Source of the DNA: a virus
Lineage: Duplodnaviria > Caudoviricetes
Reading direction: 5' to 3' (one strand)
Virus record (IMG/VR): IMGVR_UViG_3300037247_000747
Span: 1 to 61,457 of that record
DNA length: 61,457 nt
The notes beneath the pieces are model-generated. The model had not been told where the DNA came from and made no database searches. It saw nothing but the letters and a program-made list of their open reading frames with translations. The position numbers and the translations under genes are program-made. How positions within the stretch are numbered: the first letter of the stretch is position 1; the number at the start of each line of letters is the position of its first letter. Positions 4,320 to 29,400 of the stretch are shown piece by piece.

Positions 4320-6329
4320 ATGGTGGACTCTTTAGTACAATTCAGAACCAACGACCAGCTTGACCAGGATGAAAGGGAGGAAGTCGCCAAAAGGGATGCT
4401 GCACAGGTGCAGGCAAGCCCTTTAGTTTCTTCCCTGACATCTCATGTTTTAAAAAGATGGGAAGCTGCCAAGACTGCAAAGCTCGAAATTGAGCGGAAGC
4501 ATATGAGAATAAAACGTATGCTTAGGGGTGAATATGAGCCTGATAAGCTGGCTAAGATCAGAGCCAGGGGCGGTGCTTCAGTATATATGCGTTTGGCCGA
4601 TGAAAAATCTACGGCATTAAAAGCCTGGTTGATCGATATCTTGTTGCCGGCCGATGAAGAACCTTGGGGAGTATCACCGACTCCTGTGCCTGATCTTCCC
4701 CCCGAACAGCATCAAAGTATCGAGCAGTCGGTGTTGGCCCTGGTAGAGCAGGATATGGCAATTGGTGTAGAGGCCACACCCGAAGATGTGGTCAACAGAA
4801 TCCAGGGCATAGCCGGGGAGATACAGCAGCAGTTAGCGGAAGCAGCAAAAGAGGTTGAGCGCAAGGTAGAGACCAAGATTAAGGATGTTATTGTAGAATC
4901 GAATTGGCGCCAGGCACTTAAAGATTTTATTTTTAATTTGGTTGATTATAAAGCAAGTTTCCTTAAGGGGCCTGTCTTTCGCATGGGAAAAGAGATTGTC
5001 TGGGATGAGAACGGATCTCCGCAGGTTGTTGATAAGATCAATATGGAGTTTGAAGCTCCTAACCCAGTGGATATGTTTCCTTCTCCTTCCTCAAAAAATT
5101 GTAATGACGGATATCTGTTTCAAAAGCATTCCCTCACACGCAAGTCCCTGGTCGCAATGAAGGGTGTGAAAGGATATGACAGCCAGGCCATTGACAACGT
5201 CCTTAGGGATTACGGAAACGGTGGATTGAAAAGATGGATATACGAAACCAGACAGAATGAAGTTGACAGGCTATCAGAACGGCCTCATGCCGAGCTTGAC
5301 CCTGAAGGTACCATTGATGCCTTGCAGTTCTGGGGATCAATTCAAGGGCTCTCTTTGCTCGAACATGGTATAGAGGTAGAAAGAGTGCCTGATCTTTTCG
5401 CAGAGTATGAAGTGGAGGTCTGGCAGATAGGAAACTATGTAATCAAGGCAGAGCTTAACGGCAATCTTTTAGGTGACAGGGGTTACTATAAGGCGAGTTT
5501 CCGGAAGAAGACTGACCAGTTCTGGGGTGACAGTTTACCCGAAGTTATAGAAGACAACTGTGATGTGTGCAATGCGGCTGCAAGGAACATGGTCAATAAT
5601 GCAGGCATGATATCCGGGCCTCAAATCGGCGTGGATAAGAATGCAATGCCAGCCGGTGAAATTATTACCAATATCACGCCGTTGAAAGTATGGCAGTTCC
5701 ATTTAGCTGATGTAGCAAATGGTGGGAAACCGCCTATCTGGTTCTTTCAGCCCAAGAGCATGATTAATGATCTGATAAAGCTTTATGAGTTTTTCAGCGA
5801 CCAGGCTGACAACCGATCCGGTGTACCAAAATACAGCTATGGTCAATCTTCCGGGGGCGGTGCGATTAACACGGCAACCGGTTTCTCAATGATGATGTCC
5901 AATGCTTCAAGGGGGATTAAGCTGGTTATCAGCAATATCGATGAAGTTATAGAAGGATCTGTCAAGGGGGTTTATACCTTCCTGCGACTGAATGATCCTG
6001 ACCCGGTTTTAAGGATGGGTGACATTAAGCTTATACCCAAGGGTTCAAGTAGCCTTGTGGCAAAAGAGCAGACTCAAATAAGAAGGAATGAATTTCTACA
6101 AACTGCTTTGCATCCTTTACTGTCACAAATAATCGGGCCGGAGGGACTCGCAAAGATGACGCGAAAAGTCGCAAGCGGTCTGGATATGGGCGGGGAGGAT
6201 ATCGTACCATCGGATGAGGATCTTAAAAGGCTGGTGCTCCAACAGGCAGGGCCACAAAACAACGGCAAGGGAACAAACACTAATCCGGCAGGTGACAGGA
6301 TGGGAGGTCAGGATGCTCGAACAGTTTAA
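4320..6329 (+). CDS. Portal protein
   Basis: 669 aa between terL and capsid; FWGDSLPE, NAAARNMVNN and TATGFSMMM motifs typical of podovirus portals. Confidence 0.88.
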   Translation: MVDSLVQFRTNDQLDQDEREEVAKRDAAQVQASPLVSSLTSHVLKRWEAAKTAKLEIERKHMRIKRMLRGEYEPDKLAKIRARGGASVYMRLADEKSTALKAWLIDILLPADEEPWGVSPTPVPDLPPEQHQSIEQSVLALVEQDMAIGVEATPEDVVNRIQGIAGEIQQQLAEAAKEVERKVETKIKDVIVESNWRQALKDFIFNLVDYKASFLKGPVFRMGKEIVWDENGSPQVVDKINMEFEAPNPVDMFPSPSSKNCNDGYLFQKHSLTRKSLVAMKGVKGYDSQAIDNVLRDYGNGGLKRWIYETRQNEVDRLSERPHAELDPEGTIDALQFWGSIQGLSLLEHGIEVERVPDLFAEYEVEVWQIGNYVIKAELNGNLLGDRGYYKASFRKKTDQFWGDSLPEVIEDNCDVCNAAARNMVNNAGMISGPQIGVDKNAMPAGEIITNITPLKVWQFHLADVANGGKPPIWFFQPKSMINDLIKLYEFFSDQADNRSGVPKYSYGQSSGGGAINTATGFSMMMSNASRGIKLVISNIDEVIEGSVKGVYTFLRLNDPDPVLRMGDIKLIPKGSSSLVAKEQTQIRRNEFLQTALHPLLSQIIGPEGLAKMTRKVASGLDMGGEDIVPSDEDLKRLVLQQAGPQNNGKGTNTNPAGDRMGGQDARTV

Positions 6330-6927
6330 AAAACTATTGAAGATCAGGATGGGGATTAAAGAGTATTTTACAAATCTTCTAAAGAAAGAAATAGAGAAAG
6401 ATTCAAAGCCCGGCTTGAAAAACGCTGTAACGGTGGGTGATCAGGAAGTAACTTTACAGGAGCTTGAAAGCCAGACAGACCATCGCACCCTGGGGGAAAT
6501 TGAGGAAGATGAACAGGATCAATGGGTATACATTCAGAAGGATCTCAAGGATTACCGGTTTAATACGATGGAGGGTGCAGGGGTTTTTGTCGGGGAGTGT
6601 GTTGTCCAGGTTTTAAGGAAATGCGGTGTTGTCAATGAACTTGGCGCAAAGAAAATGGACGGGCGTTTGATATTTATGAATATGGTTAACAACGATAAGT
6701 TTGCCAAGGCGATGTATCAGAAGCATAAGGTAAGGTTCTCAAGGCATCGAGATAGCCAGGGTGACGAGTTTTGGGAGGCAGGAGCATACATATACAAAGA
6801 TAAGGAGTGTGTGGCCTTCATTTCGGACGGTAGCTTTGTGAAAAGTGAATATATCGTAGGCCCTGCTTTCTATGTTGTAAGAACAAATGTTCAGCTTCCT
6901 GGGGGGAAAGGGGTTAAGGCAGCATGA
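6313..6927 (+). CDS. Hypothetical protein
   Basis: GGAGG RBS precedes ATG 6313, in frame with the track ORF at 6214; ends KGVKAA. Confidence 0.65.
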   Translation: MLEQFKKLLKIRMGIKEYFTNLLKKEIEKDSKPGLKNAVTVGDQEVTLQELESQTDHRTLGEIEEDEQDQWVYIQKDLKDYRFNTMEGAGVFVGECVVQVLRKCGVVNELGAKKMDGRLIFMNMVNNDKFAKAMYQKHKVRFSRHRDSQGDEFWEAGAYIYKDKECVAFISDGSFVKSEYIVGPAFYVVRTNVQLPGGKGVKAA

Positions 6928-7325
6928 ATTTAGATATCAACGACTGCGAGAATTTCGGTCAGGTAATAGATGCCGTCACCGCCTTTGAGCTTCGTTATGA
7001 TGAGCGGCCACAAAGGCTGATAGTCAAAAGGCGTGTATTTGCGGGAATAAGAGAGAATGACCCCATTATCGGGGATCTCTATCGGCGTAAGGAGTCACCA
7101 TTTTATTTTTTCGAGAACGTTATAATTTACGAAGAAGATATTGTTATGTGGCAAAATATTCGAGAGGAATACGACCCTCTTGAATTTTGGTTACTCTATT
7201 GGGCATCTAAGGATAATATCTTCTTTGATCTGTTTGGGGAAAATGAAACGGTTAAAATAACAGGCATGAGCGATGTTAAGTATCCTGATCCACTTAAAGA
7301 AACTAAAGGAGTCAAAGCAGCATGA
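6924..7325 (+). CDS. Hypothetical protein with weak resemblance to an HK97 A-domain pattern
   Basis: ATGA-coupled on both sides; ends KGVKAA. Confidence 0.6.
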   Translation: MNLDINDCENFGQVIDAVTAFELRYDERPQRLIVKRRVFAGIRENDPIIGDLYRRKESPFYFFENVIIYEEDIVMWQNIREEYDPLEFWLLYWASKDNIFFDLFGENETVKITGMSDVKYPDPLKETKGVKAA

Positions 7326-7630
7326 TAGCGATGCCAAAGTGCGAAGACATCGGAACATTAGCGGTATTAAAACAGGTACGGGGTGATCCTGACCTTAAAC
7401 CGCTTAAGGACTTATTCCAGAGCGACCTGGATCATTTCAGAAGGAAGAACGATAAGGCAGTGGGGGATGTGCTTTCTCAGCAGCAGGGAGCCTGTCAGTA
7501 TATTGACGCACTTTTAGAGCGGATAGAAAGCTCTCCTGAGATTATTGAAAAGGTGAGGAGTGCAAAGCCAGCCCATCAAATGGGGGAAAATTTTAAGATG
7601 GAGCCTTTGAGTCCTCCGGAGGAACATTAA
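7322..7630 (+). CDS. Small helical head-module protein of the type usually found after podovirus portals
   Basis: Size, position and QQQG motif. Confidence 0.55.
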   Translation: MIAMPKCEDIGTLAVLKQVRGDPDLKPLKDLFQSDLDHFRRKNDKAVGDVLSQQQGACQYIDALLERIESSPEIIEKVRSAKPAHQMGENFKMEPLSPPEEH

Positions 7631-8115
7631 TGAACAGGCCAGATCATTTTAAGCCACACACAGAAGGACACAGAGAACTCTTTATGGATCTCCTTAATTG
7701 TGTGCCAGATGAAAATAGAGGCAATACGGCAGGTATTTGCTCTGCGATGTTTAATCTTGGGACTATAGAAGATCCGATTGAAATCAACAAAAACAATATC
7801 TTAGACTTAATAGTTGACATGGAGACTGTACTGGAGGAAAGATTTGAGTTTTGGGGTGAGCCAACAAAAGGTAAGTGGTGTTTGCTTTCTGCAGAATTTA
7901 TAGAAATGATAAGAAGAAGTGATTATAAAAATCTTCAGTATAGAGTTTCGAGTGGGTTTATGGGAGAAATCGATAATATGAATATTTATCTATCTCATAT
8001 GGTTCCAGAAACCTTGAGCCATGGCAAAATGGTGAAGCATATTCTATTTGGGTGTCCAGGAGCCATAAAAGCTGAAGGACTTGGCGTTTGTTGTGCTGTT
8101 AGAGGTGCTGCATGA
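7630..8115 (+). CDS. Truncated paralogue of the major capsid protein (A-domain region)
   Basis: NRGNTAGICSAMFNLGTIEDPIEINKNNILDLIVDMETVLEE aligns by eye with MCP NIGSTAGHESGSYNMGVSGTPKIISKENILEYTIDYGTILDE. Confidence 0.75.
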   Translation: MNRPDHFKPHTEGHRELFMDLLNCVPDENRGNTAGICSAMFNLGTIEDPIEINKNNILDLIVDMETVLEERFEFWGEPTKGKWCLLSAEFIEMIRRSDYKNLQYRVSSGFMGEIDNMNIYLSHMVPETLSHGKMVKHILFGCPGAIKAEGLGVCCAVRGAA

Positions 8116-8288
8116 ATGAGCCGGTCAACAGGTACAAACCAATGGAGGTACCTTTAACCAAGGATAATATTCTTGAGCATATTGTCGAATGTGCGAAGAT
8201 TTTTAACGAAGAACCAATTGCCACAGGAACGAGATATGTATGGCATCCCTTTCTTGAAGAGATGGTTGAGGTAGAGGTAAAAAAATGA
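8112..8288 (+). CDS. 58-aa capsid-fragment paralogue (not in the ORF track)
   Basis: TKDNILEHIVECAKIFNEEPIATGTRYVWHP aligns without gaps to MCP SKENILEYTIDYGTILDEHDVPDDSRWTTFP; ATGA-coupled. Confidence 0.65.
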   Translation: MNEPVNRYKPMEVPLTKDNILEHIVECAKIFNEEPIATGTRYVWHPFLEEMVEVEVKK

Positions 8289-8332
8289 ACAGACGACAAT
8301 TCATAAAGGGTATTCCCTGGGGGGTTGCATGA
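8285..8332 (+). CDS. 15-aa mini-ORF MNRRQFIKGIPWGVA with a twin-arginine-like motif
   Basis: GAGG RBS upstream; ATGA overlaps at both ends. Confidence 0.4.
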   Translation: MNRRQFIKGIPWGVA

Positions 8333-8706
8333 ACAAAGAAAGCTACAAATTGCTTGAAATGAGCGATCAGGATGAAGTGAAGTTTCACGTTGCCCGTGAT
8401 CCTCATTCTTTTCATAAAACATTAGTTATAGCTTGCCAAGATGTAGGAGATCCAAGGTATAGAAATCCGAACGTTAGGTATTTTGGCGAAATAATAATGC
8501 GCAGATATGAGAAGGGGGTGATGTTAGGGGCACCGGCAATGCATTTACACACCCGGCAGTCACAGCAACTTATGGATGAGCTTTGGAGCGCCGGGGTCAG
8601 ACCCACAGAAGGCCATGGCAGCACAGGCCAGATAGGCGCAACCGTGAAGCATTTAGACGATATGCGAACGATTGTTAACAAGATAATGGAGGTGGATTTG
8701 AAATGA
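8329..8706 (+). CDS. Hypothetical phage protein
   Basis: Coupled ORF with a QQLMDELWSAGVRP...HLDDMR motif. Confidence 0.65.
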   Translation: MNKESYKLLEMSDQDEVKFHVARDPHSFHKTLVIACQDVGDPRYRNPNVRYFGEIIMRRYEKGVMLGAPAMHLHTRQSQQLMDELWSAGVRPTEGHGSTGQIGATVKHLDDMRTIVNKIMEVDLK

Positions 8707-8921
8707 AAGCAATCGCTCTATTCATCTTCCTCTGCTTATCCGGCTGTAACTATATTGAGGACATGGCAGATGATGCAGCAGAAAACGCCATAGGGGATTG
8801 CCCCACTCAAGAACAGGTTGAGAGGATTATTCTTGATGCTATTGATGATGCGTTTGAGCATTACAGGTATGAGATGAAAGAGGATATGAAAGAAGTGTTG
8901 GAGGAAGTTATTAATGGATGA
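8703..8921 (+). CDS. Small putative lipoprotein
   Basis: Lipobox MKAIALFIFLCLSGC. Confidence 0.65.
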   Translation: MKAIALFIFLCLSGCNYIEDMADDAAENAIGDCPTQEQVERIILDAIDDAFEHYRYEMKEDMKEVLEEVING

Positions 8922-9027
8922 CAAGCCAGCAACAGTTGACAGCAGGCAGATAGCAAAAGCTTTGATAAGAGGGCTGAAACAGATCGTAGCTCTTTTAGAA
9001 AAAGTCTTGAAGGGTGAAAAAATATGA
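8914..9027 (+). CDS. 37-aa amphipathic peptide (not in the ORF track)
   Basis: GGAGG RBS; MDDKPATVDSRQIAKALIRGLKQIVALLEKVLKGEKI; ATGA-coupled to the next gene. Confidence 0.55.
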   Translation: MDDKPATVDSRQIAKALIRGLKQIVALLEKVLKGEKI

Positions 9028-9434
9028 GAGAGCAAAGATCGATAGCAGAACTATCAGTTACAAAGAATGCCAGGTTTAGAACTTTGGGAGGCTTAAGCAT
9101 CACCAAAAGCAGGGATCTTACCAATGATGATGTGAGGAACCAGAACTATGATAACTATGGTCAGGCAGCATCTATGACTATTTCCCTGTTTCCTTCCACC
9201 ATAGGAGCTGCTTTTCAGTTTTTTGTAAGTACGGCAAGCCAAACTACTGATTTCGAACCGCCTGCAGGTGAGAGCTTTCTTGTGGACGGTACGGCTTACA
9301 CGGCAGGCAACCATGCGGATATATCAAATTCCTATGGTGATAAGTTTATGTTTAAGAGGGAAAAGGACAGTTCCGGCAATGGTATCTGGGTTGCTTATAC
9401 GATCCAGGGAGGCGTAAGTGACGGAGGGGCGTAA
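9024..9434 (+). CDS. Putative head fibre/decoration protein
   Basis: Beta-rich, fibre-like C-terminal domain; lies in the head module. Confidence 0.5.
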   Translation: MREQRSIAELSVTKNARFRTLGGLSITKSRDLTNDDVRNQNYDNYGQAASMTISLFPSTIGAAFQFFVSTASQTTDFEPPAGESFLVDGTAYTAGNHADISNSYGDKFMFKREKDSSGNGIWVAYTIQGGVSDGGA

Positions 9435-9445
9435 AGGGGAGGTAA

Positions 9446-11026
9446 ATGGCTGAACTTCAAACAAATGGAGATTTTTCAGACATAACATTAGGCGCTGCAA
9501 AAGCTGTAACTCAGATTAGTAATGCTGATCCAGCAATCATCACGCTTGCGGCAAGTCATGGATATGTAGCTGGTAATTTTATTTATTTGGCAGATTTTGA
9601 CGAGTCTTTATTCCCTACTATTCTAAATGATCTGCCAGCAAGTCATGATTTTACTGGTGATGATACAGAAGATGGATGGACAATGCTTGGGTCACCCGCT
9701 ACCTGTGAAACGGATGCTGATAGTAAACTCACTGTCGTAGTGGATACAGTAGGTCAGGGTATTAATGTAGCACTGGATATTGTTGAGGGTACAATATATC
9801 GCATGTCTGTGCCTTTTACCATAACTGACAAAGAGAGTGGTAATGAGTGGGTAGCATTGTGGAGCGAGAACGATAATATTGAATTTTTATTCGGCACAAG
9901 TGACAATATATATGTCAATCGTAATGGTGACACTTGCTTTATTTTCTCAGGTAATGGAACCAAAGTTTTATATTTTAAAGCCCTTGACACAGTTATCGGG
10001 GAAACCCTTGTAATTGATTGTGATAAGGTGACAAACGGTTTTACATTTACTTTAGATAATCCCTTAATTCAAGAAGTTGCTAATCTTGATGGCAACGTAT
10101 ATGAATTAGGTACTTTTACTGGTGATACTGCTCCCTTGAGCAATTATGCTGGTGACTTAGATTTGTCTGGTTTAGCAGGAGTCACAAGCGCTGGAAACGC
10201 AAAACTTGTTACCCTTACTGATTGGACGGTAGGTGATGGTGTCGGGCCGTTTAGAAATGTTGGAGTAAAAAACTCTATCGACTTGCCTGTAAGTCATGAT
10301 TTTCTTGTGGCCGGTGATACTGGCGGTTGGAAGGTAGAGGAAAGTCCAACAGTGTGTGAAACGGATGCTGATGGAAAACTGTCTTTTACTCCATCTGCTT
10401 CTTGGGACGGAATTTGGACAAAAGTTTACATGACTCCGATGGATACACATCAACGCATAAGTTTTGATTTTACCATGTCCAATGCTAATGATGGCGAACT
10501 TGTGTTTGCATTTTGGGATGGTGGTTTTGAAATAACATCGGTAGCAGGGACAGGAGTTACACTTTCTGGCAACACTGTTATTTTAACTGAAAGTACCAGA
10601 GTAACTATTGATTGCAATTCTCCTTTTTTTGGGACTTGGACTCCTTTTAAGTTTTTAGCTTTTGGCTACGTAGATGGTTTCTCTTTTACAATTGCGAATT
10701 TTGTTACCGAGATAATATATGATCTAACTGTACAGGTCACAGGATCGCAATCCGCAGAGACAAGCTTATTGCAAGATGTGGCAGAAGTCAACGGCAAGAA
10801 ATACAAAATCTCTTTCGGTGTATCCGACCGCACAGCCGGGGGTGCAGCGCCCACAGCCGGTGGGGATGACGGTACAGAACAAATAGCAAACGGCTCGTAT
10901 AGTGAGGTTTTAACAGCAGTAGGGCCAGACAACTCGGGTCTAAAATTCTCAGATGGGTTTATTGGGAAAGTAGACGATTTATTAATCGAAAGCTTTGCGG
11001 GTGCAGCAATGCTATTGGGATTTTAA
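9446..11026 (+). CDS. Putative virion carbohydrate-binding protein with internally duplicated modules
   Basis: NGDF...W...GKKYKISF CBM-like frame; duplicated LPxSHDF...CETDADxKL modules; strong RBS. Confidence 0.65.
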   Translation: MAELQTNGDFSDITLGAAKAVTQISNADPAIITLAASHGYVAGNFIYLADFDESLFPTILNDLPASHDFTGDDTEDGWTMLGSPATCETDADSKLTVVVDTVGQGINVALDIVEGTIYRMSVPFTITDKESGNEWVALWSENDNIEFLFGTSDNIYVNRNGDTCFIFSGNGTKVLYFKALDTVIGETLVIDCDKVTNGFTFTLDNPLIQEVANLDGNVYELGTFTGDTAPLSNYAGDLDLSGLAGVTSAGNAKLVTLTDWTVGDGVGPFRNVGVKNSIDLPVSHDFLVAGDTGGWKVEESPTVCETDADGKLSFTPSASWDGIWTKVYMTPMDTHQRISFDFTMSNANDGELVFAFWDGGFEITSVAGTGVTLSGNTVILTESTRVTIDCNSPFFGTWTPFKFLAFGYVDGFSFTIANFVTEIIYDLTVQVTGSQSAETSLLQDVAEVNGKKYKISFGVSDRTAGGAAPTAGGDDGTEQIANGSYSEVLTAVGPDNSGLKFSDGFIGKVDDLLIESFAGAAMLLGF

Positions 11027-11191: not shown

Positions 11192-11986
11192 ATGAGACAT
11201 GAACAGTTATCAATCGGAATAGCAACTATCAGAAGGTTGTTTTTCGGCAGTCGGAACGGACTCGCAGGAGTAGAGGTATCGGAAGCAGACATTCTTCCTG
11301 ATATTGTCACCAAGGAAAAGTTTGATTGCGCTCCTGCATGCAACAACGTCACAGGTGCAGCATGTGCCGGAACCGATGGGGCGGGACATTCAATGGTTTT
11401 CCCACGGACAGGGTTTGAGTTTTATAACATCGGGACTCAGACAGTCCTATGCCCACAGCTTGTAGCAACAGGCTTGGCGGTCGGTCTTGACGAAACTGAG
11501 GATGAAGGGATTGAGGTAAACCAGGGGGTTACAGCAAGGTCAAGGTCTGCATTTGTCATCGGCACATCTCTGGCGTTTTATGCGAAATTAAAATTTATCT
11601 TAGCGACCGTAGCCGACACAGACGACTGTGCCTTTGGCTTCAGAAAAGCAGAACCGCATGACGCGGCACTGGTTAACTACCTCGATTATGCTGTCCTGAA
11701 TGTCATCTCCGGAGACATTAAAATCGAAACTGATTTGAATAACGGCGGAACACCTACGGTTACTGACACAACGGACGATTGGGCTGACACCGAAGAACAT
11801 ACCCTTGAAATCTATGTCAGTGCGGAAGGAGTTGTAACATACAAAATAGATGGAGCGCCCCCGACTGTCACGGCTGCGTTTACCTTTGATGATGGAGATA
11901 CAGTGGTTCCTTTTTTCTACTTTCTCCATGCATCAACACCAGGCTCAGGCCCAATATGGACCGAATGGGAGGTAGGGCTTCAATAA
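11192..11986 (+). CDS. Putative head decoration / concanavalin-like virion protein
   Basis: Beta-sandwich-like pattern (HTLEIYV...VTYKIDG); located before the scaffold gene. Confidence 0.55.
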   Translation: MRHEQLSIGIATIRRLFFGSRNGLAGVEVSEADILPDIVTKEKFDCAPACNNVTGAACAGTDGAGHSMVFPRTGFEFYNIGTQTVLCPQLVATGLAVGLDETEDEGIEVNQGVTARSRSAFVIGTSLAFYAKLKFILATVADTDDCAFGFRKAEPHDAALVNYLDYAVLNVISGDIKIETDLNNGGTPTVTDTTDDWADTEEHTLEIYVSAEGVVTYKIDGAPPTVTAAFTFDDGDTVVPFFYFLHASTPGSGPIWTEWEVGLQ

Positions 11987-12062: not shown

Positions 12063-13163
12063 ATGAGTATACCAGATAAAGTAGCAGCGCAGCTCAAGAA
12101 AGCCCAGGAGCTGCAAAAGAACATTGCACCAAAAGGGAACACAGACAAAGACCCTCTCACGCCGGATGATAAGAATACCTCTCCTGAATTAAAACCGGGA
12201 GATGCTCTTAAACCGGATGAGAATAAGTCGCAACCTGCTCCTTTAGAACCAACAGCAGAACCACTATCACCAGAACCAACAGCAGAACCGATCAAACCCG
12301 TAGAGACACCTGCGCCGGCTGATGATGAAAACAGCCAAACGTGGAAGCAGAAGCACAATGTCATAAAAGGCAAGTATGAAGCCGAAGTTCCACGACTGAA
12401 TACGCAGGTGACTCATCTTACCGGGCAGGTCAATTTTTTAAGCAATGAAAATCTTGGAGTGAAACAGCAACTTGAAACGGCTAATCGGCAGAATGTTGAA
12501 CTGCAAGTGGCGAAACCGGCAGAGTCGGATACAGTTAAACCCGGAAAACTGGACCCTGAAGCGTTTCGGACATTCGGGGATGAATTTGTGGGGCTGGCAG
12601 AGACATTGAACAACCTTTCGGGATCAGTAGGAGACCTGGAAGGCTCTGTTGGCTCTGTTCAATCTGTTCAAGCGGACGGCCAGAAGAAAGAGCGAGTAAA
12701 GTATAGGGATAAACTTACTGCACGAATTAAGGGTTTTGATGCCATAAACGATAGTCCGGGCTTTATCGGATACTTGCAGGCTAACCCCGTAATAAATTCC
12801 CAATTGCAGAGCTACAACGATCAGATGAACCACATCGAAGTTGCAAAGATTTTCAAGGGATATACCGACCAGGCAGGGGATACAATTATCCCTCCTGTCG
12901 AAGATCCAAAACCAACCCCAAACCCAGCTCCAGACCCGAAACTTTCACTGGAAAAAGTGTCCATTACTCCTGATGGTTCAGCGAGTCAAAGCTCAGTTCC
13001 GGACACACAGAAGCAGACTTACACAAAGGCGCAGATCAGCAAGTTTTACAATGATCAGCGAGAGGGAAAGTTCAAGGGTAAAGAGGATCAGGCTTGGGTG
13101 AAAAAAACACAGGCTGACATTTTAGCGGCTACTCGTGATGGCCGCATAATCGATAACTACTAA
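12063..13163 (+). CDS. Capsid scaffolding protein
   Basis: Pro/Glu-rich N-terminus, WKQKHNVIKGKYEAEVPRL coiled coil, C-terminal helix ending DGRI; directly precedes the MCP. Confidence 0.8.
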   Translation: MSIPDKVAAQLKKAQELQKNIAPKGNTDKDPLTPDDKNTSPELKPGDALKPDENKSQPAPLEPTAEPLSPEPTAEPIKPVETPAPADDENSQTWKQKHNVIKGKYEAEVPRLNTQVTHLTGQVNFLSNENLGVKQQLETANRQNVELQVAKPAESDTVKPGKLDPEAFRTFGDEFVGLAETLNNLSGSVGDLEGSVGSVQSVQADGQKKERVKYRDKLTARIKGFDAINDSPGFIGYLQANPVINSQLQSYNDQMNHIEVAKIFKGYTDQAGDTIIPPVEDPKPTPNPAPDPKLSLEKVSITPDGSASQSSVPDTQKQTYTKAQISKFYNDQREGKFKGKEDQAWVKKTQADILAATRDGRIIDNY

Positions 13164-13206: not shown

Positions 13207-14130
13207 ATGGTACCAGCAGCAGCAGGAACCCCGCAATACAGCGGTAATTTTATACCTGAAATTTGGTCAGGCAACCTTTTGGTGAAATACTACGCATTAT
13301 CCGTATTCCCAGGAATCGCCAATACCAAGTATGAAGGTGAGATCAAAGAGCAGGGCGACGTCATTAATATCAGGACAACGGCTGATGTCGTAATCAATAC
13401 GCACGTTAAAAATCAGAAGCTTGACTTACAGCATCCTGACAACCCAATGATTACTTTTCCGATCAGAAAAGCCCTGTCTTTCTCGTTTATCTGTAACGAC
13501 ATCGACAAGCACCAGTCTGATATCGACTTGATGGGAGACTGGTCCAGAGATGCCGGTGAGAAGATGAGGATTGCTATTGATGAGCTTGGCCTTGGCGATG
13601 TGTACGCTGATGCACATGCTGACAATATCGGATCTACGGCAGGTCATGAGTCCGGCAGTTACAACATGGGCGTTAGTGGTACTCCTAAAATCATATCTAA
13701 GGAGAACATCCTTGAATATACCATTGATTACGGGACCATACTTGATGAACATGATGTGCCGGATGATAGCCGTTGGACTACTTTCCCGGCGTGGATGTCC
13801 AACCTGCTCAAGAAGTCCGACATTAAAGACGTTTCCATGACCGGTGATTCCAAAAGTTCTATCCGTCATGGCCGTTTGGGTATGATCGATACCCTGGAGC
13901 TTTTCAAGTCAAACAAAATCAAAAAGGTAACGGATGGTAGCTATACTGTCTACTATCCCATGGCAGGCCATAAGGATGCGATCTCGTTTGCAGCCCAGAT
14001 GACCCAAATGGATACTTTGAAGGCACAGACCACATTCGGACAGATCGTGCGAGGCTTGAATGTGTTTGATTATAAGGTTCTCAAACCGGAAGCACTTGTG
14101 ACCGGATACGTGCGTAAAGGCACAGGTTAA
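13207..14130 (+). CDS. Major capsid protein (HK97 fold)
   Basis: FIPEIWS, YEGEIKxxGDxIxI and RGLNVFDYKVLKPEAL motifs; strong RBS. Confidence 0.9.
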   Translation: MVPAAAGTPQYSGNFIPEIWSGNLLVKYYALSVFPGIANTKYEGEIKEQGDVINIRTTADVVINTHVKNQKLDLQHPDNPMITFPIRKALSFSFICNDIDKHQSDIDLMGDWSRDAGEKMRIAIDELGLGDVYADAHADNIGSTAGHESGSYNMGVSGTPKIISKENILEYTIDYGTILDEHDVPDDSRWTTFPAWMSNLLKKSDIKDVSMTGDSKSSIRHGRLGMIDTLELFKSNKIKKVTDGSYTVYYPMAGHKDAISFAAQMTQMDTLKAQTTFGQIVRGLNVFDYKVLKPEALVTGYVRKGTG

Positions 14131-14765: not shown

Positions 14766-15308
14766 ATGGAAAAGAAGCGATATCTTAAAAAAGTAACAAA
14801 CGGTGTTGTGTTTACCTTTGACGCAACCCTTTCCAAACGGACAGACATGATTGAGATCCCACAGGCAGAGGCAGAATGGAGGATAGGAGGTTGCAAGGGG
14901 CAAGCTCCTACAATCATCAATCCGGCTGTTTCGCAGAGTGCTGTAGACATAGTCAACAGTATGGACGAACCCAGGCAAAAGGAAGTTTATAAACTGCTCA
15001 AAGCAAAATTTGAGCCTGCCCCTGCCCCTGAACTTATACCGGATGGAGATCCTGAAAGCCAGATTCCTGCGCCTCCGGAGGCTCCGCAGATCCTTGAGCC
15101 TGGTAAAGATGAAGACCTGGAAAAAAAGGCTGATTCCATCGACAAGCCTGTTGATGAAATGACTAAAGCAGAGCTTCAGGTTTATGCCCAGATCGTTCAC
15201 ACGACTAACCTTGACCCGGACACCATGAAAAAAGAACCAATGCTTGAGGCTGTTAAGGAACTGGATGTTAAAAAGGCAAAACGAGATGCAGCACAGGCAG
15301 CAGCATGA
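14766..15308 (+). CDS. Hypothetical head-module protein with a C-terminal Rho-N/SAP-like helix pair
   Basis: DEMTKAELQVYA...KKEPMLEAV pattern. Confidence 0.55.
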   Translation: MEKKRYLKKVTNGVVFTFDATLSKRTDMIEIPQAEAEWRIGGCKGQAPTIINPAVSQSAVDIVNSMDEPRQKEVYKLLKAKFEPAPAPELIPDGDPESQIPAPPEAPQILEPGKDEDLEKKADSIDKPVDEMTKAELQVYAQIVHTTNLDPDTMKKEPMLEAVKELDVKKAKRDAAQAAA

Positions 15309-23416: not shown

Positions 23417-26400
23417 ATGTTCAATATATCTCAATTTAGGCAACAAAACCCACAGTTTGCTGAAATGGACTCGTATGATCTTGCACACAAGGTCTACTCT
23501 GCTAATCCTGCGCTTCAAAATGCGGGTGTTACTTTTAATGATTTTGCCAAACAGTCGGGTGCGGATGAAGATTATTCCTCAAGAAATTCCGGGTTTGTCG
23601 ATACCGTTAAAGCAATTGGAGCTGGCTCAAAAACACTTTGGAGTCAGGTAAAAGGCTCTACTGCCTCTGCTATTCGTGGCGGTGATATCGATACCCAAGA
23701 GGGTTACGCCGATAAGGTTATCCGCGAGAATCAGGAAATCATCCAGGCTTATTTAGCAGAGTACGGGAAAAACAAGGGTGATTCCTTTCTTAACATTACT
23801 CCCAGTGATGTAGCCACAGCAATAAGCAATATGGGCTTTTCCGGTGTTGCAGCCGTTACGGGTTTAGCCGTGGGCGGTGCAACGGCGGCACTTCCTGTCC
23901 CTGGTGCAAGACCAGCGGCATACGCTACCGGTTCAGCAGCAATGGGAAAAGTAGCTTACAACATGGCAAGGGATCAGTTTACCCAGACATTCATGGATGC
24001 TGTAAATGAGGATCGAGCATCAAGGGGCACGCCTTCTTTAACAGAAGAAGAATGGCAACCAATGAAGGAAGGGCTTGACCAGAAAGCCCATGAATACGGT
24101 TTATGGGAAGCTATTCCCGAAGCAATAGGTGGTGCGGTGGGATTTAAGATCATTACTGCACCGCTGAAAGGCTTTTTAAAAAAATATTTAAAAGATGATA
24201 TTGGCAACAGAATGTTAGGCAAGCTCGTTAGTGGCGGTGCAAGGCTTGGCGCTACAACCGCAGAGCAACTTGTTGAGGAAACTATTACACAGTATGGGCA
24301 AGGCGGCATTGAGGCCGATGTTGGTTTAAGGGATGAAAGACCTACCTGGAAAGAAGCAGGCAAAGAGATTTACGGGCCAACAGTAGCATTGACAGCGATT
24401 ATGGCCGGTGGAGCTAAAGGCGCTCATATGGGGTATGAGGCCCTTACCAAAAAGAAAGCAATAACCACAAATGAACCAACAGACCTTTTAAAAGATGCTC
24501 CGATACCGGAAGCAGATCCTGGCCCTGTCCAGGACAGAGTACATGCCCCGGGTGATATTTCCGGTCCTACTCCGATGCAAGTACAGAACCAGGAAGAAAT
24601 CAACCAGGCCATGCCTGTGCATAGAAGTTCCGATCTTCTTAAAACCCATGAAGAAGAAGTAAGTGAAAAACAGGAAGCAGAACTCGAAAGTCTACAACAG
24701 TCCATGGACGATGAAAGGCAAGCTCAGGAATGGGAAGCTGAAATAACAGGACAGCAGCAGGCCGAAGCTCAAAGACAGGAAGAATTAAGGCGAGAAGAAA
24801 TTCAAAGACCGTATCCGGACACAAATGTTTCCGGGCAAATTCCAGACAAGGGTCTTGCTCATATTGTTTCCTCCGAAGTTAATGGTCAAAAAATTAAAGT
24901 TAATGTTACACCAACAGAAGCGCAAAAGCAAGCAGGAAATTATTTGAAAGGGGCAATTAATATCCAGGGCATGGAAATCTCTATTGAGAATCCAAAAGGA
25001 TCAGAGCGAACCGGTGTTGATGAAAACGGAAAAGACTGGTCTGTTACCATGAATCATCCTTATGGATACTTTAACAGAACTGAGGGCAAGGACGGTGAAC
25101 AAATCGATGTGATTGTGGGTCCCAATCCTGAAAGTGAGAAAGCATTCGTTGTAGATCAGATCAACCCAAACACCGGGAACTTCGATGAACACAAATCTTT
25201 GGTAGGATTTAAGGATAAAAATAGTGCCAGAGAAGGCTATCTATCCAATTATGAGGAAGGATGGAAAGGTCTTGGAGAAATAACTGAAACGCCTGTTGAT
25301 GAATTTAAGGCATGGATTGGTGACGGAAAAAGAAAGACATTGCCATATGCTGATCACATCGCCAAAAAAGACGAGCCTGCAGTTAAAGTGGGAGATATCA
25401 TTCATACCATGCCAGATGGATCTATTATGCCGGGTCCTGAACATAAAGGATCTGTACCCGGAAGTGAAAGAAAAGCTACTCAAGAAGATATTAATGCTCT
25501 TTTTGAACTTGGTGAACCAAAAAAGCCAAAGAAGACTCAAGGGGCCATACAAAGAAAGCTTACTGACAGCGAAATAGTAAAGACAGAAGATGTTGACGCT
25601 GTTGAAAAACTTAAAAAGAAAATTGACAAGCTTGTAAAGATTCAAGATTTAATGAATGCAGCGGATAAGATCGTTAATAAGAAAAATCTTTCATATGATG
25701 AGAAAGTAGCTGAACTTCTCGAAATAAAGGATCGAATACAAAGCATAGAGAAACAAAGAACTGAGAAGCAAGTTGAGACAAAGAAACCCTCAAAAGATGT
25801 CAAAAAACCGGAAAAACTCACCAAAAAACAAAAGGCCCTTCAGGAGTACCAGAATTATATAGGCGCTCTTTCCCCGGAACAAACAGAACTTGCCGGGGAT
25901 CTGGTTCAAGAAGACCCTAAGTATCCTTCAGGACAGGTGTTGAAGATTAAGAAGAGGTTGAAGGATGCTAAAAAACCTATTCCCAAGATAAAGCCCCTTA
26001 AGCAATCCACAAAAGGCGCAAACGTCCGAACTATCCGGGGCTATATAAACACTGTTTTAAGTGGCATAAACCCCGGAAACATGAAAGGTGAGGTTGAAGA
26101 GCTTCCTGTTGCTGCCAAGTTTCTATTTAGAAAGAGCGGTACACCCTTGGACCTGGCAGAAGAAGACCTTAAAGCAAATGGCTGGATGCATCCGGACGAA
26201 GACCTTTTATCAGAACTCCGTGACCCTGAATTTCTAAAGCGCAGGCCTATCACAAAAGAACTTGAGGACATTCCCGAAGCAGAGCTCACTAAAGCAGAAA
26301 AGGAAGTTCGAGATATCGGGAAGCAGGATATAGAAGCAGGAGAGACAGCCGAGTTTTTTGAGAAGAAAGGCTTTGAGATGGTCGGGGGCAAAGATATCAC

Positions 26401-29400
26401 TGTGGCTGACCTGAATGAAGGTGATAAAGTCTTTGCCGAGATAGATGGTGTTAAGGACGAATATACTGTCAATGGTTTGAATAAAGAAGGTGAAGTCATT
26501 TTCCAGAACGGTGTGCAAAAGGAAATCGATGTTTTTGATAAGATAAACATTGAGGCTATTAAGAGGGTTGAAGAACCAAAAGAGAGAGATTCCTTTACTG
26601 TTGAGCGGTATGATAAAGAAGCAGACGATATTGTTGACCTTGGGTTTAATCGTGGGGAATATGTAAAAGCCTTTATAAATAAAGAAAAATGGAGCAGGGG
26701 AGAAATACAGGGCATTTCTCATGCGAACAAACAAGCAAAAGTTAATAATCTTTGGTTTGGTTTTGGATCAATCTACAAAGCAAAGAAGCCCGCTGAAATA
26801 AAAAAGAAAAAAGTCCCACTATCCGAAGCAATAACCGCCGCCGAAAAAGCACCCCCTGGTGGTTTTAAAGAAGGTGATAAAGTACCCAAAGAACAAAAAC
26901 CCCTTCTTCCCCCAGAGAAACCCACTCTTTTAGAAAAACAAGTAAAGGAAGTTCCAAAACCAAAGCGTGAAAGAAAAGCCAAGGGTGTATCGGCTATTGA
27001 AGATCAACTTCTTCCTGGTATGGGGATGAACCAGAGAGGTTTGTTTGATAAGAAGAAACCAAAGGAACCGGTCAAAAAAGCTCCTGCGGTCGAAGAGAAA
27101 GAAACTCCGTTTGGCGAATCATCAAAAGAAGTTGTCGTGTCTCCATTTGAACAGGCAGTAGACAGAGTTAATAAAAAATATGCTAAAATAATCTCTCTTC
27201 CCGAAGTAACCACAAAATCTGATTTTTATTCGAAGATTGATGAATTTGAAGTCACGCCAAAGATGCTTGACACGTATCTAAAAGAATCGGATAATCCAGT
27301 TAAAGAAGCTAAAAACATTCAGTCTATTCTTGCTGATAGGGTAGGAGAATTAATTGAAACGCATAGATATGAAAGTGAAAAAGAAGGGGAGCAGTTTGAA
27401 AAAGAACTCGACGGCCTACTCAGTATTGCCAATGGTTACATATCCGAAAAGAAAGTGCGGGTTAAAACTGTACAGGCCGATACTAAAAAGAAACCCACAA
27501 AAGCCAAAGGATTACCCACAGATAGAAGAGTAGAGAAAGAAGGTGGCAGCACAGAACAATACTCCACCAGAAAAGGCGATGCTGCAGACCTTTCCCTTTC
27601 AGATATCCGATCAGCATTTAAAGGCCAGGAGGTAGGATTAGGCAAAGACGGTAATGTATGGGTTATAACGAAATCAGGCCACCGCCTTACAATAAAGAAT
27701 GTAGAATCAATCTCCGATAATGAAGCCGCTTATTCTATTGGTTATGGTAAAGCCCTGGGGGGTGATATAAAACCGAACATATCCGGATCATACCAGGCCG
27801 GTGTCATTAAGATAGTAAGATCCATAGGGGATAAGTTCACTCTTTCCCATGAGTCCGTACACTGGATGGAAGATGTAGGCATCCTTAATAAGATGGATCG
27901 GAACGTCCTTGATAATGCGGTTAAGAAAGCCGGATTTGGTAAAGGGCTCAGTGAACAGGAAGCAAGAGCCCAGTTTATAGAACAGGAGCTTATCAACCGG
28001 GATAAGTACAGAAAGACTCCTTTAGGCCGAGTATTACAAAAGATCCAAGACTTTATTGACGGATTTATCAACCTGGTCAAGAAAACCTCAAAAGGCCTGG
28101 TAAGAGAGATAGAATCAGGGAAGGTTTACGACCGTAAGGTAGGGGATAGAACATATAAAACCACTGTGCCTGCTTATTCAAAAACAGCCGGTAGGTGGTA
28201 TTCCCAGATGGAAAGGTTTCTATCTGAGAAGCTACCCGGGAAAGCCACTCCTGTCATACTCAAAGGTATGTTAAGCAACTGGGCGAAAAAGGGAGAGATT
28301 AAAGCAGAGGAATTGGAATGGAGCGGTGTTCTTGAGTGGCTGGATCAGCAGGAAGGTAAAGTCACAAAGCAACAGGTTCTTGACTTCCTGAAAGAAAACA
28401 ATGTTGAGGTTCAGGAGGTTGTTAAGGGTGATATTAAGCCTCTTGAATGGAAAGACGCTGTAAAAGGTGGAAAATTTACAGTTTCATCTAATCCAGATCT
28501 GAAAATTGAGCATCTGCCAAACGGGATGTTTACTCTTCACACCCCTGGTGGAACGAGAGATCTTCATAAAACAATCGATGCTGCAAAGCAGGCTGGGGAA
28601 AGAGTAAATAAAAACATAGCTGAGCCGGAAACCAAATTTTCTCAATACCAACTCCCAGGAGGCAAGAACTACAAAGAGCTAATACTAACCCTTAGGGGTG
28701 CTGACCTTGGGTATGTAACGCCTCAATTCCATCAGTATGGTGACGCTGCCGATAAAAATCGTTTGGCATGGGTTCGCTTCAATGAAAGAACAGACTCAGA
28801 AGGAAACAAGGTTCTTTTTATAGAGGAAATTCAGAGCGATTGGCACCAGGAGGGGAGGAAGAAGGGGTACGGAGAAACTGACACAACAGGCTGGAAAGTC
28901 CTTCAGGATGAAAGTGTTGAAGGTAAGTGGGATGTCTTCGATAAAGATGGGCGGGTAGTATATTCGGCTAGTGGCCTTGGTAAAGAAGAAACCCTTAGGC
29001 TTGGAAAAGCAAGCGCCTTACAACCTGGTGTCCCCGATGCCCCCTTCAAAAAAACATGGCCAATAATGACAATGAAAAGAATGGTCAGGCACGCTACTGA
29101 AAACGGGTTTGATAAGATAGCATGGACTACCGGAGAAATGCAGGCTGATAGGTATGATTTGAGTAAGCAGGTTACGAAAATAGAAACATTCGGTAGAACA
29201 GATGCCAAGACAGGAGAAAAAACAAAAACTGTCGAAATACTTCCTGTAGGGCGTGTGCTTCCAATAACTTTAGGTGTAGATAACAACGGGGTTATTGATA
29301 ATTCGCCAGAAGTCACAGCGTATTTGGGTAGACCGTTAGAAGAGGTTATAGGCAAAGAGCTGGCTGAAAAAATTATTAAGGGGCCACCGTACCAAGAATA

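Follow-up and report, generated by a model that had tools for sequence, protein, structure and literature searches.

A stand-alone HK97 A-domain gene, orf161, in the head module of a tailed-phage genome

Why should a tailed phage that has a full-length gene for its major capsid protein (MCP) also have a second, much shorter open reading frame (ORF) that resembles only the middle of that protein? This question is raised by IMG/VR virus record IMGVR_UViG_3300037247_000747. The record is complete, has 61,457 bp, and carries direct terminal repeats; it was analysed over its whole length and is called the window here. The only sequencing run found to hold the window is a marine sediment metagenome, and this may be the source sample. 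The short gene, orf161, lies on the + strand at 7630..8115 and codes for 161 amino acids (aa); by MCP homology and by fold its product is a stand-alone HK97 A-domain protein, or mini-MCP. The MCP gene itself is at 13207..14130 (+). The answer that we propose is that orf161 is very probably an isolated HK97 A-domain gene that is selectively maintained and looks expressed, that it belongs to a rare set of short, portal-adjacent MCP forms in marine or metagenomic tailed phages, and that it sits within an accessory insertion in the head module.

One domain of the capsid protein as a separate gene

The reading frame of orf161 has the marks of a gene. It starts with an ATG placed 6 nt 3' of a ribosome-binding site, GGAGGA (7618..7623, + strand, read from the sequence), and this start overlaps the stop codon of orf102 in the string TAATG (7628-7632), while its own stop codon overlaps the start of orf58 in the string ATGA (8112-8115). 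The frame from stop to stop has only 172 codons and therefore there is no hidden N-terminal extension. Within the genome, orf161 matches only itself and the MCP. BLASTP aligned its residues 28-146 with residues 139-259 of the MCP, with 33/125 residues identical (26%), 48% positives, 51.6 bits, and an E value of 6e-13. An earlier note on this DNA had described the gene as intact, translationally coupled, and diverged, and as a match to the central part of the MCP on the strength of three pairs of motifs; the open frame, the ribosome-binding site, both overlaps, and the 26% identity agree with that description, and all three motif pairs lie inside this one alignment.

The identity of the MCP is clear from its own matches. 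It is a 307-aa HK97-fold protein that matches phrog_267, 'major head protein', with an E value of 8e-41, its AlphaFold2 model has a predicted local distance difference test score (pLDDT) of 89.3, and its profile matches the solved MCP of Mycobacterium phage Che8 (gp6, 8e16) with an E value of 2e-39. When it was used in tblastn, 397 phage records annotated as MCP matched, the best of them, 36.5% identical, coming from the RHph_TM3_14A group of Rhizobium phages. With orf161 the same search found matches in four of 50,697 GenBank phage records, all of Rhizobium phages and every time within the gene annotated as MCP (E 2e-6), and a phmmer search of 1.84 billion representatives with orf161 yielded 111 proteins at E<=1e-3, most of them MCP-type proteins of about 300 aa that were matched at residues 130-270. 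Among the PHROGs, orf161 weakly matches phrog_267 (E 0.01). With hmmscan against Pfam-A at E<=0.1 no family was found for orf161 and none for the MCP of the window either; the label PF25209 (Phage_capsid_4) used here rests on the precomputed annotation of homologues and on the ESM Atlas. The motif N-x-G-x-T-A-G ... N-L-G ... P ... N-x-L-D ... V-L-x-E is common to orf161 and the PF25209/phrog_267 MCPs, and in sequence similarity orf161 belongs to this HK97-fold family.

Which part of the MCP has been kept can be read from the AlphaFold2 models and the alignments. The model of orf161, built from a 97-row alignment, is compact (pLDDT 87.3, predicted template modelling score 0.83). Its elements are a helix at 14-23, a strand at 50-52, a helix at 57-75, a strand at 82-86, a helix at 88-96, four strands within 110-141, and a strand at 151-158, and these match, in the MCP, the end of the spine helix (108-135), the strand 161-163, the helix 168-181, the strand 189-193, the helix 195-203, the strands within 223-255, and the strand 297-304. 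What remains in orf161 is thus the end of the spine helix (its last turns), the full A-domain core of helices and sheet (MCP 161-255), and the C-terminal strand. Residue N29 aligns to MCP N140, and about 111-124 N-terminal MCP residues have no counterpart; the part that is absent, MCP 1 to about 124, comprises the N-arm, the E-loop region, the first P-domain strands, and most of the spine helix. A separate, internal deletion has removed MCP 260-292, a 33-residue P-domain hairpin (strands 259-272 and 278-291). The loss of roughly 110 N-terminal residues and the correspondence to the HK97 A-domain had both been proposed in the earlier note and agree with these results; its further statement that most of the C-terminal strands are lacking is right for the P-domain hairpin and wrong for the final strand, since MCP 293-305 is retained as orf161 147-158. 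As modelled, two independent deletions, both at domain borders, leave one complete domain.

Fold comparisons point the same way. A Foldseek search of BFVD with orf161 gave a best E value of 8.7e-9 (query-normalised TM score, TMq, 0.76; root-mean-square deviation 2.9 A) and three matches at E<=1e-3; the best match is nameless, and of the rows with a name most are major capsid proteins and the others are called 'uncharacterized' or 'capsid protein'. In the PDB all the matches listed were HK97-fold capsids or encapsulins, with a best E value of 2.7e-3, none at E<=1e-3, and TMq of 0.37-0.51. The ESM Atlas's own model of orf161 matches PF25209 clusters over residues ~20-161 with TM scores of 0.63-0.67. 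By sequence, a profile of the short forms described below found no relative in the PDB. The complete HK97 fold, with N-arm, E-loop, P-domain, and A-domain, is not present in the orf161 model or alignments, and from the missing N-arm, E-loop, P-domain hairpin, and most of the spine helix we infer that the protein could not form a shell.

The best phmmer matches of orf161 are other short proteins and not MCPs. They include P0002 (229 aa, 47% identical, with nearly the same C-terminal peptide) and P0003 (234 aa, 41% identical), and the set of short forms also holds P0004 (214 aa; four near-identical variants, all of 214 aa), P0014 (238 aa; six variants of 236-238 aa), P0022 (155 aa; two variants), and P0074 (162 aa, 28% identical). 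A deletion of about 17 residues in the P-domain segment is common to P0002, P0003, P0014, P0009, and P0011. In seven of seven short forms, whose mean pairwise identity is 31%, nine residues are invariant (N29, A34, G35, S38, L43, G44, P49, N56, and E70 in orf161), and G109, G112, Y120, and S122 are kept in six of the seven. Per-column entropy is correlated between the short forms and 96 regular MCPs (rho 0.40, p 7e-7; largest value in 1000 permutations 0.25), and this correlation is well below the 0.73 +/- 0.04 of random seven-member sets of regular MCPs. The difference can be located in part: after the second A-domain helix, at orf161 87-107, seven positions that are 77-94% conserved in regular MCPs fall in a stretch that is shortened and unconserved in the short forms, and the MCP counterpart of this stretch holds the one poorly modelled loop of the MCP model (217-221). 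The short forms also diverge faster than the capsid, because orf161 and P0074 are 28% identical whereas the MCPs of their two phages are 43% identical. On this pattern of constraint the domain appears to have been retained and re-purposed and not left to neutral decay, and the conserved core residues and the position of the cuts at domain boundaries uphold the earlier view that orf161 looks unlike debris.

Directly 3' of orf161 there is a second and shorter MCP-derived fragment, orf58 (58 aa; 8112..8288, +), whose ATG overlaps the orf161 stop. In hhalign against the 97-row alignment of MCPs and minis, orf58 matched over 35 columns (orf58 12-46 against orf161 49-87) with a probability of 90.7% and an E value of 1.3e-6, a region that covers an A-domain helix and the next strand, and residues 170-203 of the MCP-type protein P0008 matched 8148-8249, inside orf58, in tblastn (E 0.002). 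Pairwise BLASTP of orf58 against orf161 was not significant (E 0.33). This fragment may be a decayed tandem copy of the mini-MCP or a separate micro-protein; if it is the former, some birth-and-death turnover is likely.

Sporadic distribution, origin and surroundings

Eight loci were found with portals 43-63% identical to that of the window, and seven of them (L003-L009) cover the stretch from portal to MCP. The earlier note had called for a survey of related genomes for syntenic copies, and none came to light: orf161 is absent from the portal-to-MCP stretch in all seven (0/7 with a copy), its only match being inside the MCP gene in four loci and none at all in the others. The nearest relative, L009, shows where the insertion lies. 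There the homologue of orf102 ends at 2686 and that of orf264 starts at 2700, 14 bp apart, whereas in the window 3.56 kb lie between these two genes. The inserted accessory block (7630..11026, +) holds orf161, orf58, orf125, orf72, orf136, and orf526, and its ORFs are absent between portal and MCP in L003-L009, the sole match being one to orf136 in L004, about 6 kb upstream of the portal. The G+C content at third codon positions (GC3) is 0.315 in orf161 and 0.294 in orf526 against 0.43-0.52 in the portal, orf102, orf264, scaffold, and MCP genes. The stretch from portal to scaffold is a variable hot spot in these phages, and orf161, variably present among close relatives and located in this variable region, is an accessory gene.

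The earlier note had called orf161 a paralogue of the phage's own MCP, and this was overstated, because orf161 is only 26% identical to that MCP against 47% and 41% to P0002 and P0003, although orf161 and its own MCP as sisters are not formally rejected by an approximately unbiased (AU) test (p 0.065). Since closer relatives are without the gene and its GC3 is low, it is more likely to be an acquired accessory gene; as judged from its sequence, orf161 probably arrived as an MCP-family homologue and is not a recent copy of the phage's MCP. A quick tree of 111 rows, made without P0060 and P0095 (both >450 aa), set 15 short or odd rows apart from the 96 regular MCPs with an SH-aLRT (Shimodaira-Hasegawa-like approximate likelihood-ratio test) support of 98, a split to be read with the caveat of long branches, and a careful tree of 45 rows placed P0074 among the regular MCPs. 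Apart from the test mentioned, AU tests of P0074 with its own MCP (p 0.31) and of the seven minis as one clade (p 0.33) also rejected nothing, and both a single and a multiple origin of the short forms are compatible with them.

Three other accounts of the gene were set aside. That orf161 is the tail of a frameshifted full-length MCP was rejected because orf102 is conserved in relatives without a mini and because a search of the window by tblastn with 11 queries, each an MCP or a mini, turned up no N-terminal part of an MCP. That it is a silent cassette, kept for gene conversion of the MCP gene, was rejected by reasoning, as 26% protein identity leaves no DNA homology, and a link to a homing endonuclease was rejected because there is no such gene among the neighbours of orf161.

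In the three other contexts found, all in distantly related metagenomic phages, the short forms lie near the portal. In G001, a complete viral record of 64 kb whose portal is 32% and whose own full-length MCP is 43% identical to the counterparts in the window, P0074 lies between the large terminase and the portal; in L039 a 215-aa form of the P0113 type overlaps the portal stop codon; and in L030 P0003 lies downstream of orf237-like and orf102-like genes. In four lineages, then, the short gene is in the portal-proximal head module, next to the portal or a few genes from it, and never adjoins the MCP gene. Such genes are rare. No short form was found in the 50,697 GenBank phage records by tblastn with orf161, P0002, and P0113. 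A word-based homologue search with orf161 returned only orf161 itself (1 of 12 candidates), and neither a scan of viral contigs with orf161 nor a scan with P0116 gave a locus. The scan with an alignment of orf161, P0002, and P0003 gave 16 loci, all with MCP-type ORFs, of which 15 have 285-352 aa and the other, with 216 aa, has the look of an MCP that is split or wrongly started. The metagenome scan gave at least two loci (L030 and L031), the P0002 contig not being among the matches listed, and the profile search with the short forms gave 1074 proteins at E<=1e-5, mostly regular MCPs, the short forms among the best 120 of the 1074 being the three query members only.

Some odd relatives were seen alongside these. 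A micro family of 87-94 aa (P0045, P0061, P0064, P0065, and P0081) has the first loop and helix of the MCP A-domain followed by a conserved C-terminal part of its own, and P0077 (131 aa) groups with it; the scan with the micro-family alignment gave seven loci, all regular MCPs. P0009 and P0011, of 296 aa each and from Logan contigs of 1.5-2 kb, are near-full-length MCP-like proteins that group with the short forms, and their N-termini resemble twin-arginine translocation (Tat) signal peptides (RRTF[FL]K and then a hydrophobic stretch), with matches to Pfam TAT_signal at E values of 3.5e-3 and 5e-4 that are below the gathering cut-off. An exported HK97-like protein would be odd, and a scan of genome contigs with these two Tat-type proteins gave no locus. 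The MCP gene is often not continuous in this phage group: in L004-L007 it is split at residue 44/45 by ~260-900 bp, in L012 exon 1 and exon 2 of the G001 MCP are ~1 kb apart, and in L031 (1795-3416) a regular MCP ORF breaks off after ~205 aligned residues, and the next ORF (282 aa), which has an LGDG motif and clusters of cysteines, by eye looks like a LAGLIDADG-type homing endonuclease. These interruptions are probably introns or inteins.

The genes around orf161 are all on the + strand in the order 566-aa ORF, portal, orf237, orf133, orf102, orf161, orf58, orf125, orf72, orf136, orf526, orf264, a scaffold-like 366-aa ORF, and MCP. The portal gene (4320..6329, +) was identified by Pfam SU10_portal (E 1.5e-10), phrog_332, and phrog_1216. 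Its 3' end is overlapped by 116 nt, in a different frame, by orf237 as listed (6214-6927, +), whose true start is probably an internal Met; orf237 is kept directly 3' of the portal, at 37-44% identity, in all seven relatives that cover the region, and no family match was found for it in Pfam or PHROGs. The conserved 5' neighbour that bounds orf161, orf102 (7322..7630, +), has syntenic homologues that are 49% identical in L009 and 28% identical in L005-L007, and the conserved gene 3' of the insertion, orf264 (11192..11986, +), has homologues that are 56-58% identical in L003, L008, and L009. The 366-aa gene directly 5' of the MCP gene (12063..13163, +) matches phrog_13678 (function unknown) and has homologues in the same place in L003-L009; from its position and these homologues its product is a probable scaffolding protein. 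Scans for promoters and terminators around orf161 gave counts at or near chance expectation.

Further features of the region were noted in passing. The string GCAGCATGA stands at three gene ends (6918-6927, 7316-7325, and 15299-15308, +); orf237, orf133, and a 180-aa ORF (14766-15308) share an end of the form '...K/Q-A-A stop' in which GCAGCATGA overlaps the next start, and the end of orf161, GCTGCATGA, resembles these. This junction motif is not enriched in the window, where there are 15 matches against 8 expected and 3 of 100 shuffles reach 15. The last ORF of the accessory block, orf526 (9446-11026, +), has by eye two internal repeats of about 230 aa, with similar stretches that begin at about residues 63 and 282. 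At the N-terminus, 52 residues share 40% identity with residues ~78-129 of an ORF of 581 aa in G001 (L011 15508-15663), a likeness that suggests a common anchoring module on different fibre or decoration proteins, and residues 14-50 of orf526 weakly match phrog_584 'major tail protein'. A single ORF of 2,990 aa (23417-32389, +) in the structural region perhaps codes for a giant internal or ejected virion protein.

What the protein may do

In the HK97 fold the parts that are missing from orf161, namely, N-arm, E-loop, and P-domain, tie capsomers together. Because the A-domain helices are kept and these inter-capsomer parts are missing, orf161 should present or bind the capsomer-forming face and not build shell. 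The two A-domain helices are, according to the encapsulin article (PMC8346489), the main subunit interfaces in the pentameric facet of HK97, and a preprint (10.64898/2026.01.04.697583) reports that the defence proteins Avs7, Avs8, and Avs10 bind the A-domain interface that forms pentons and hexons and that, in the SeAvs7 structure, two lobes of the tetratricopeptide-repeat (TPR) sensor clamp together around the whole MCP. We tentatively suggest, as a possible role, that orf161 is a capsid mimic that acts as a counter-defence decoy, and this reading is ranked first because of these Avs reports and because the gene is accessory, fast-evolving, and sporadic. The protein would be made late, together with the MCP, and would mimic the MCP A-domain, the part that forms the penton/hexon interface. 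Without N-arm, E-loop, and P-domain it would not be built into the shell, yet it could occupy whatever reads the A-domain face, and the likeliest reader would be a host immune sensor that detects unassembled MCP by its A-domain, as described for Avs7, Avs8, and Avs10. If binding without the P-domain and E-loop contacts engaged such a sensor without closing it, orf161 would be a competitive decoy. The wider form of this idea, which seems rather doubtful, is that tailed phages have repeatedly cut the MCP down to its A-domain, or to its first loop and helix, and have kept the product beside the portal as a mimic that blunts sensors of the penton/hexon face of unassembled MCP; it would then be the first case of a decoy protein that mimics a structural protein of a phage.

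Several points weigh against the decoy. The expression, the binding partner, and the counter-defence role of orf161 are all inferred; a decoy has to compete with an MCP that is present in great abundance; and a sensor might be triggered, and not blocked, by the A-domain on its own. A limited literature search, mostly of titles and abstracts, found no phage-encoded stand-alone A-domain or capsid-mimic decoy. The loop at 87-107, conserved in regular MCPs and not in the short forms, is a part of the MCP surface that is not mimicked. The constant position on the portal side and the weak co-folding signal with the MCP, given below, fit a role in assembly at least equally well, and the series of sizes, 296 > ~230 > ~160 > ~90 aa, could be read as stages of decay.

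In a role in assembly, rather unlikely in our estimate, orf161 would use the capsomer-forming helices that it retains to bind either the MCP of its phage or the portal vertex, and would be an assembly factor or a minor component of the capsid; as such it could be a cap or chaperone for MCP monomers, could adjust how the procapsid starts at the portal, or could be an accessory subunit of the shell. Both A-domain helices, the interfaces described above, are kept. Co-folding of orf161 with the MCP gave an ipSAE interface score of 0.42 (runs 0.44, 0.42, and 0.41) against 0.01 for the best control, with contacts that agree to at least 46% and a partner pLDDT of at least 72, a signal that the co-folding tool grades as weak and that may reflect memory of solved capsids. 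The mini-MCP genes are near the portal in four of four contexts and translationally coupled to head genes; the portal-to-scaffold stretch, however, is the variable hot spot described above, so that position alone says little. Relatives whose MCPs are 55-64% identical to that of the window do without the gene, which is thus not needed for this type of capsid, and at 26% identity to its presumed partner, and 28% to the G001 mini against 43% between the two MCPs, orf161 changes more quickly than the capsid. It has also lost the loop that follows the second A-domain helix and is conserved in MCPs. Sporadic distribution, fast divergence, and an accessory insertion would suit instead a weapon between phages, an improbable reading in which a dominant-negative A-domain enters the capsomers of related phages, or of satellites, that infect the same cell and stops their shells from forming while the phage's own MCP is insensitive. 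As modelled, a domain without inter-capsomer contacts would end assembly if it were incorporated. Dominant-negative factors derived from capsid genes exist in animals (Fv1 and enJS56A1), and satellites redirect helper capsids by means of HK97-type or scaffold-like proteins. This reading has no known target, and the co-fold with the MCP of the same phage, being weakly positive, runs opposite to the insensitivity that it requires.

It is very improbable that orf161 and orf58 are simply the decaying remains of a second or former MCP gene, left open by chance or for the sake of translational coupling. Two MCP-derived pieces do stand in tandem, of which orf58 is only a 35-column remnant, lengths are graded among the relatives, the entropy correlation is lower than that of regular MCP sets of equal size, and the frequent disruption of MCP genes by inserts in this phage group speaks for turnover at capsid genes. 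Neutral decay, however, would not allow nine core residues to be invariant in seven of seven short forms that are about 31% identical. Both deletions fall on domain boundaries and the complete A-domain is predicted to fold with high confidence; the reading frames are unbroken and coupled, and there is a ribosome-binding site; near-identical clusters keep their length (214 aa in four, 236-238 aa in six, and 155 aa in two); and the 87-94-aa micro family shares a conserved C-terminal part of its own. The remaining probability belongs to something that we have not considered.

Significance and comparison with known systems

Capsid proteins are major triggers of bacterial immunity and several families of sensors read the A-domain; CapRel and Lit are capsid-sensing defence systems. 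A phage gene for the A-domain only is therefore a candidate antagonist of such sensors or a candidate regulator of capsid assembly. If orf161 is a capsid mimic, it is a counterpart to sensing of the Avs7/8/10 type. If it has neither a decoy nor an assembly role, it still marks an accessory gene family of an unusual kind and, in little-studied marine phages, a hot spot of head-module turnover. A-domain-only derivatives of HK97 proteins, known from the archaeal and Bacteroidetes Family 4 encapsulins, arise in phages too, where they probably arose more than once, at sizes from ~90 to ~235 aa.

Compared with the defence side, orf161 retains the part of the MCP that the host proteins Avs7, Avs8, and Avs10 read, as the preprint describes them, and in the titles and abstracts that made up most of our limited literature search there was no phage-encoded mimic antagonising Avs7, Avs8, Avs10, CapRel, or Lit. 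Compared with the PF25209/phrog_267 MCPs such as Che8 gp6 (8e16), it shares A-domain sequence homology and fold, but it is about half as long, lacks N-arm, E-loop, P-domain hairpin, and most of the spine helix, and has one loop that is unconserved. Among its PDB fold matches is 1yue, which we take to be gp24, the vertex protein of T4 and a paralogue of the MCP gp23. T4 gp24, like orf161, is a second HK97-derived gene beside the MCP gene in the same phage; gp24, however, has a full-length HK97 fold and forms pentons, whereas orf161 is a single domain and is absent from close relatives. Thus, orf161 is neither an MCP in the functional sense, as the full fold is absent, nor a vertex paralogue of the gp24 type.

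The closest known analogue of orf161 is the Family 4 or 'A-domain encapsulins' (Pfam PF08967/DUF1884; PDB 2PK8), which are described as proteins of about 100 aa from hyperthermophilic archaea and two genera of Bacteroidetes that are encoded in two-gene operons with enzymes, namely, hydrogenase, OsmC, GAPDH, or DeoC (Andreas & Giessen 2021, PMC8346489). In both, the HK97 fold has been reduced to the A-domain with loss of N-arm, E-loop, and P-domain, and orf161 has this A-domain-only architecture without belonging to PF08967/DUF1884 by sequence; 2PK8 is not among the 35 PDB fold matches listed for orf161. The Family 4 proteins described there are cellular and lie in enzyme operons, whereas orf161 is phage-encoded, has 161 aa, derives from a different MCP family, and lies between portal-associated genes and the scaffold and MCP genes, in a head module that also has the full-length MCP. 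Set beside these systems, orf161 is a real, unusual, and domain-exact phage-borne truncation of an MCP within a rare and diverse set of genes.

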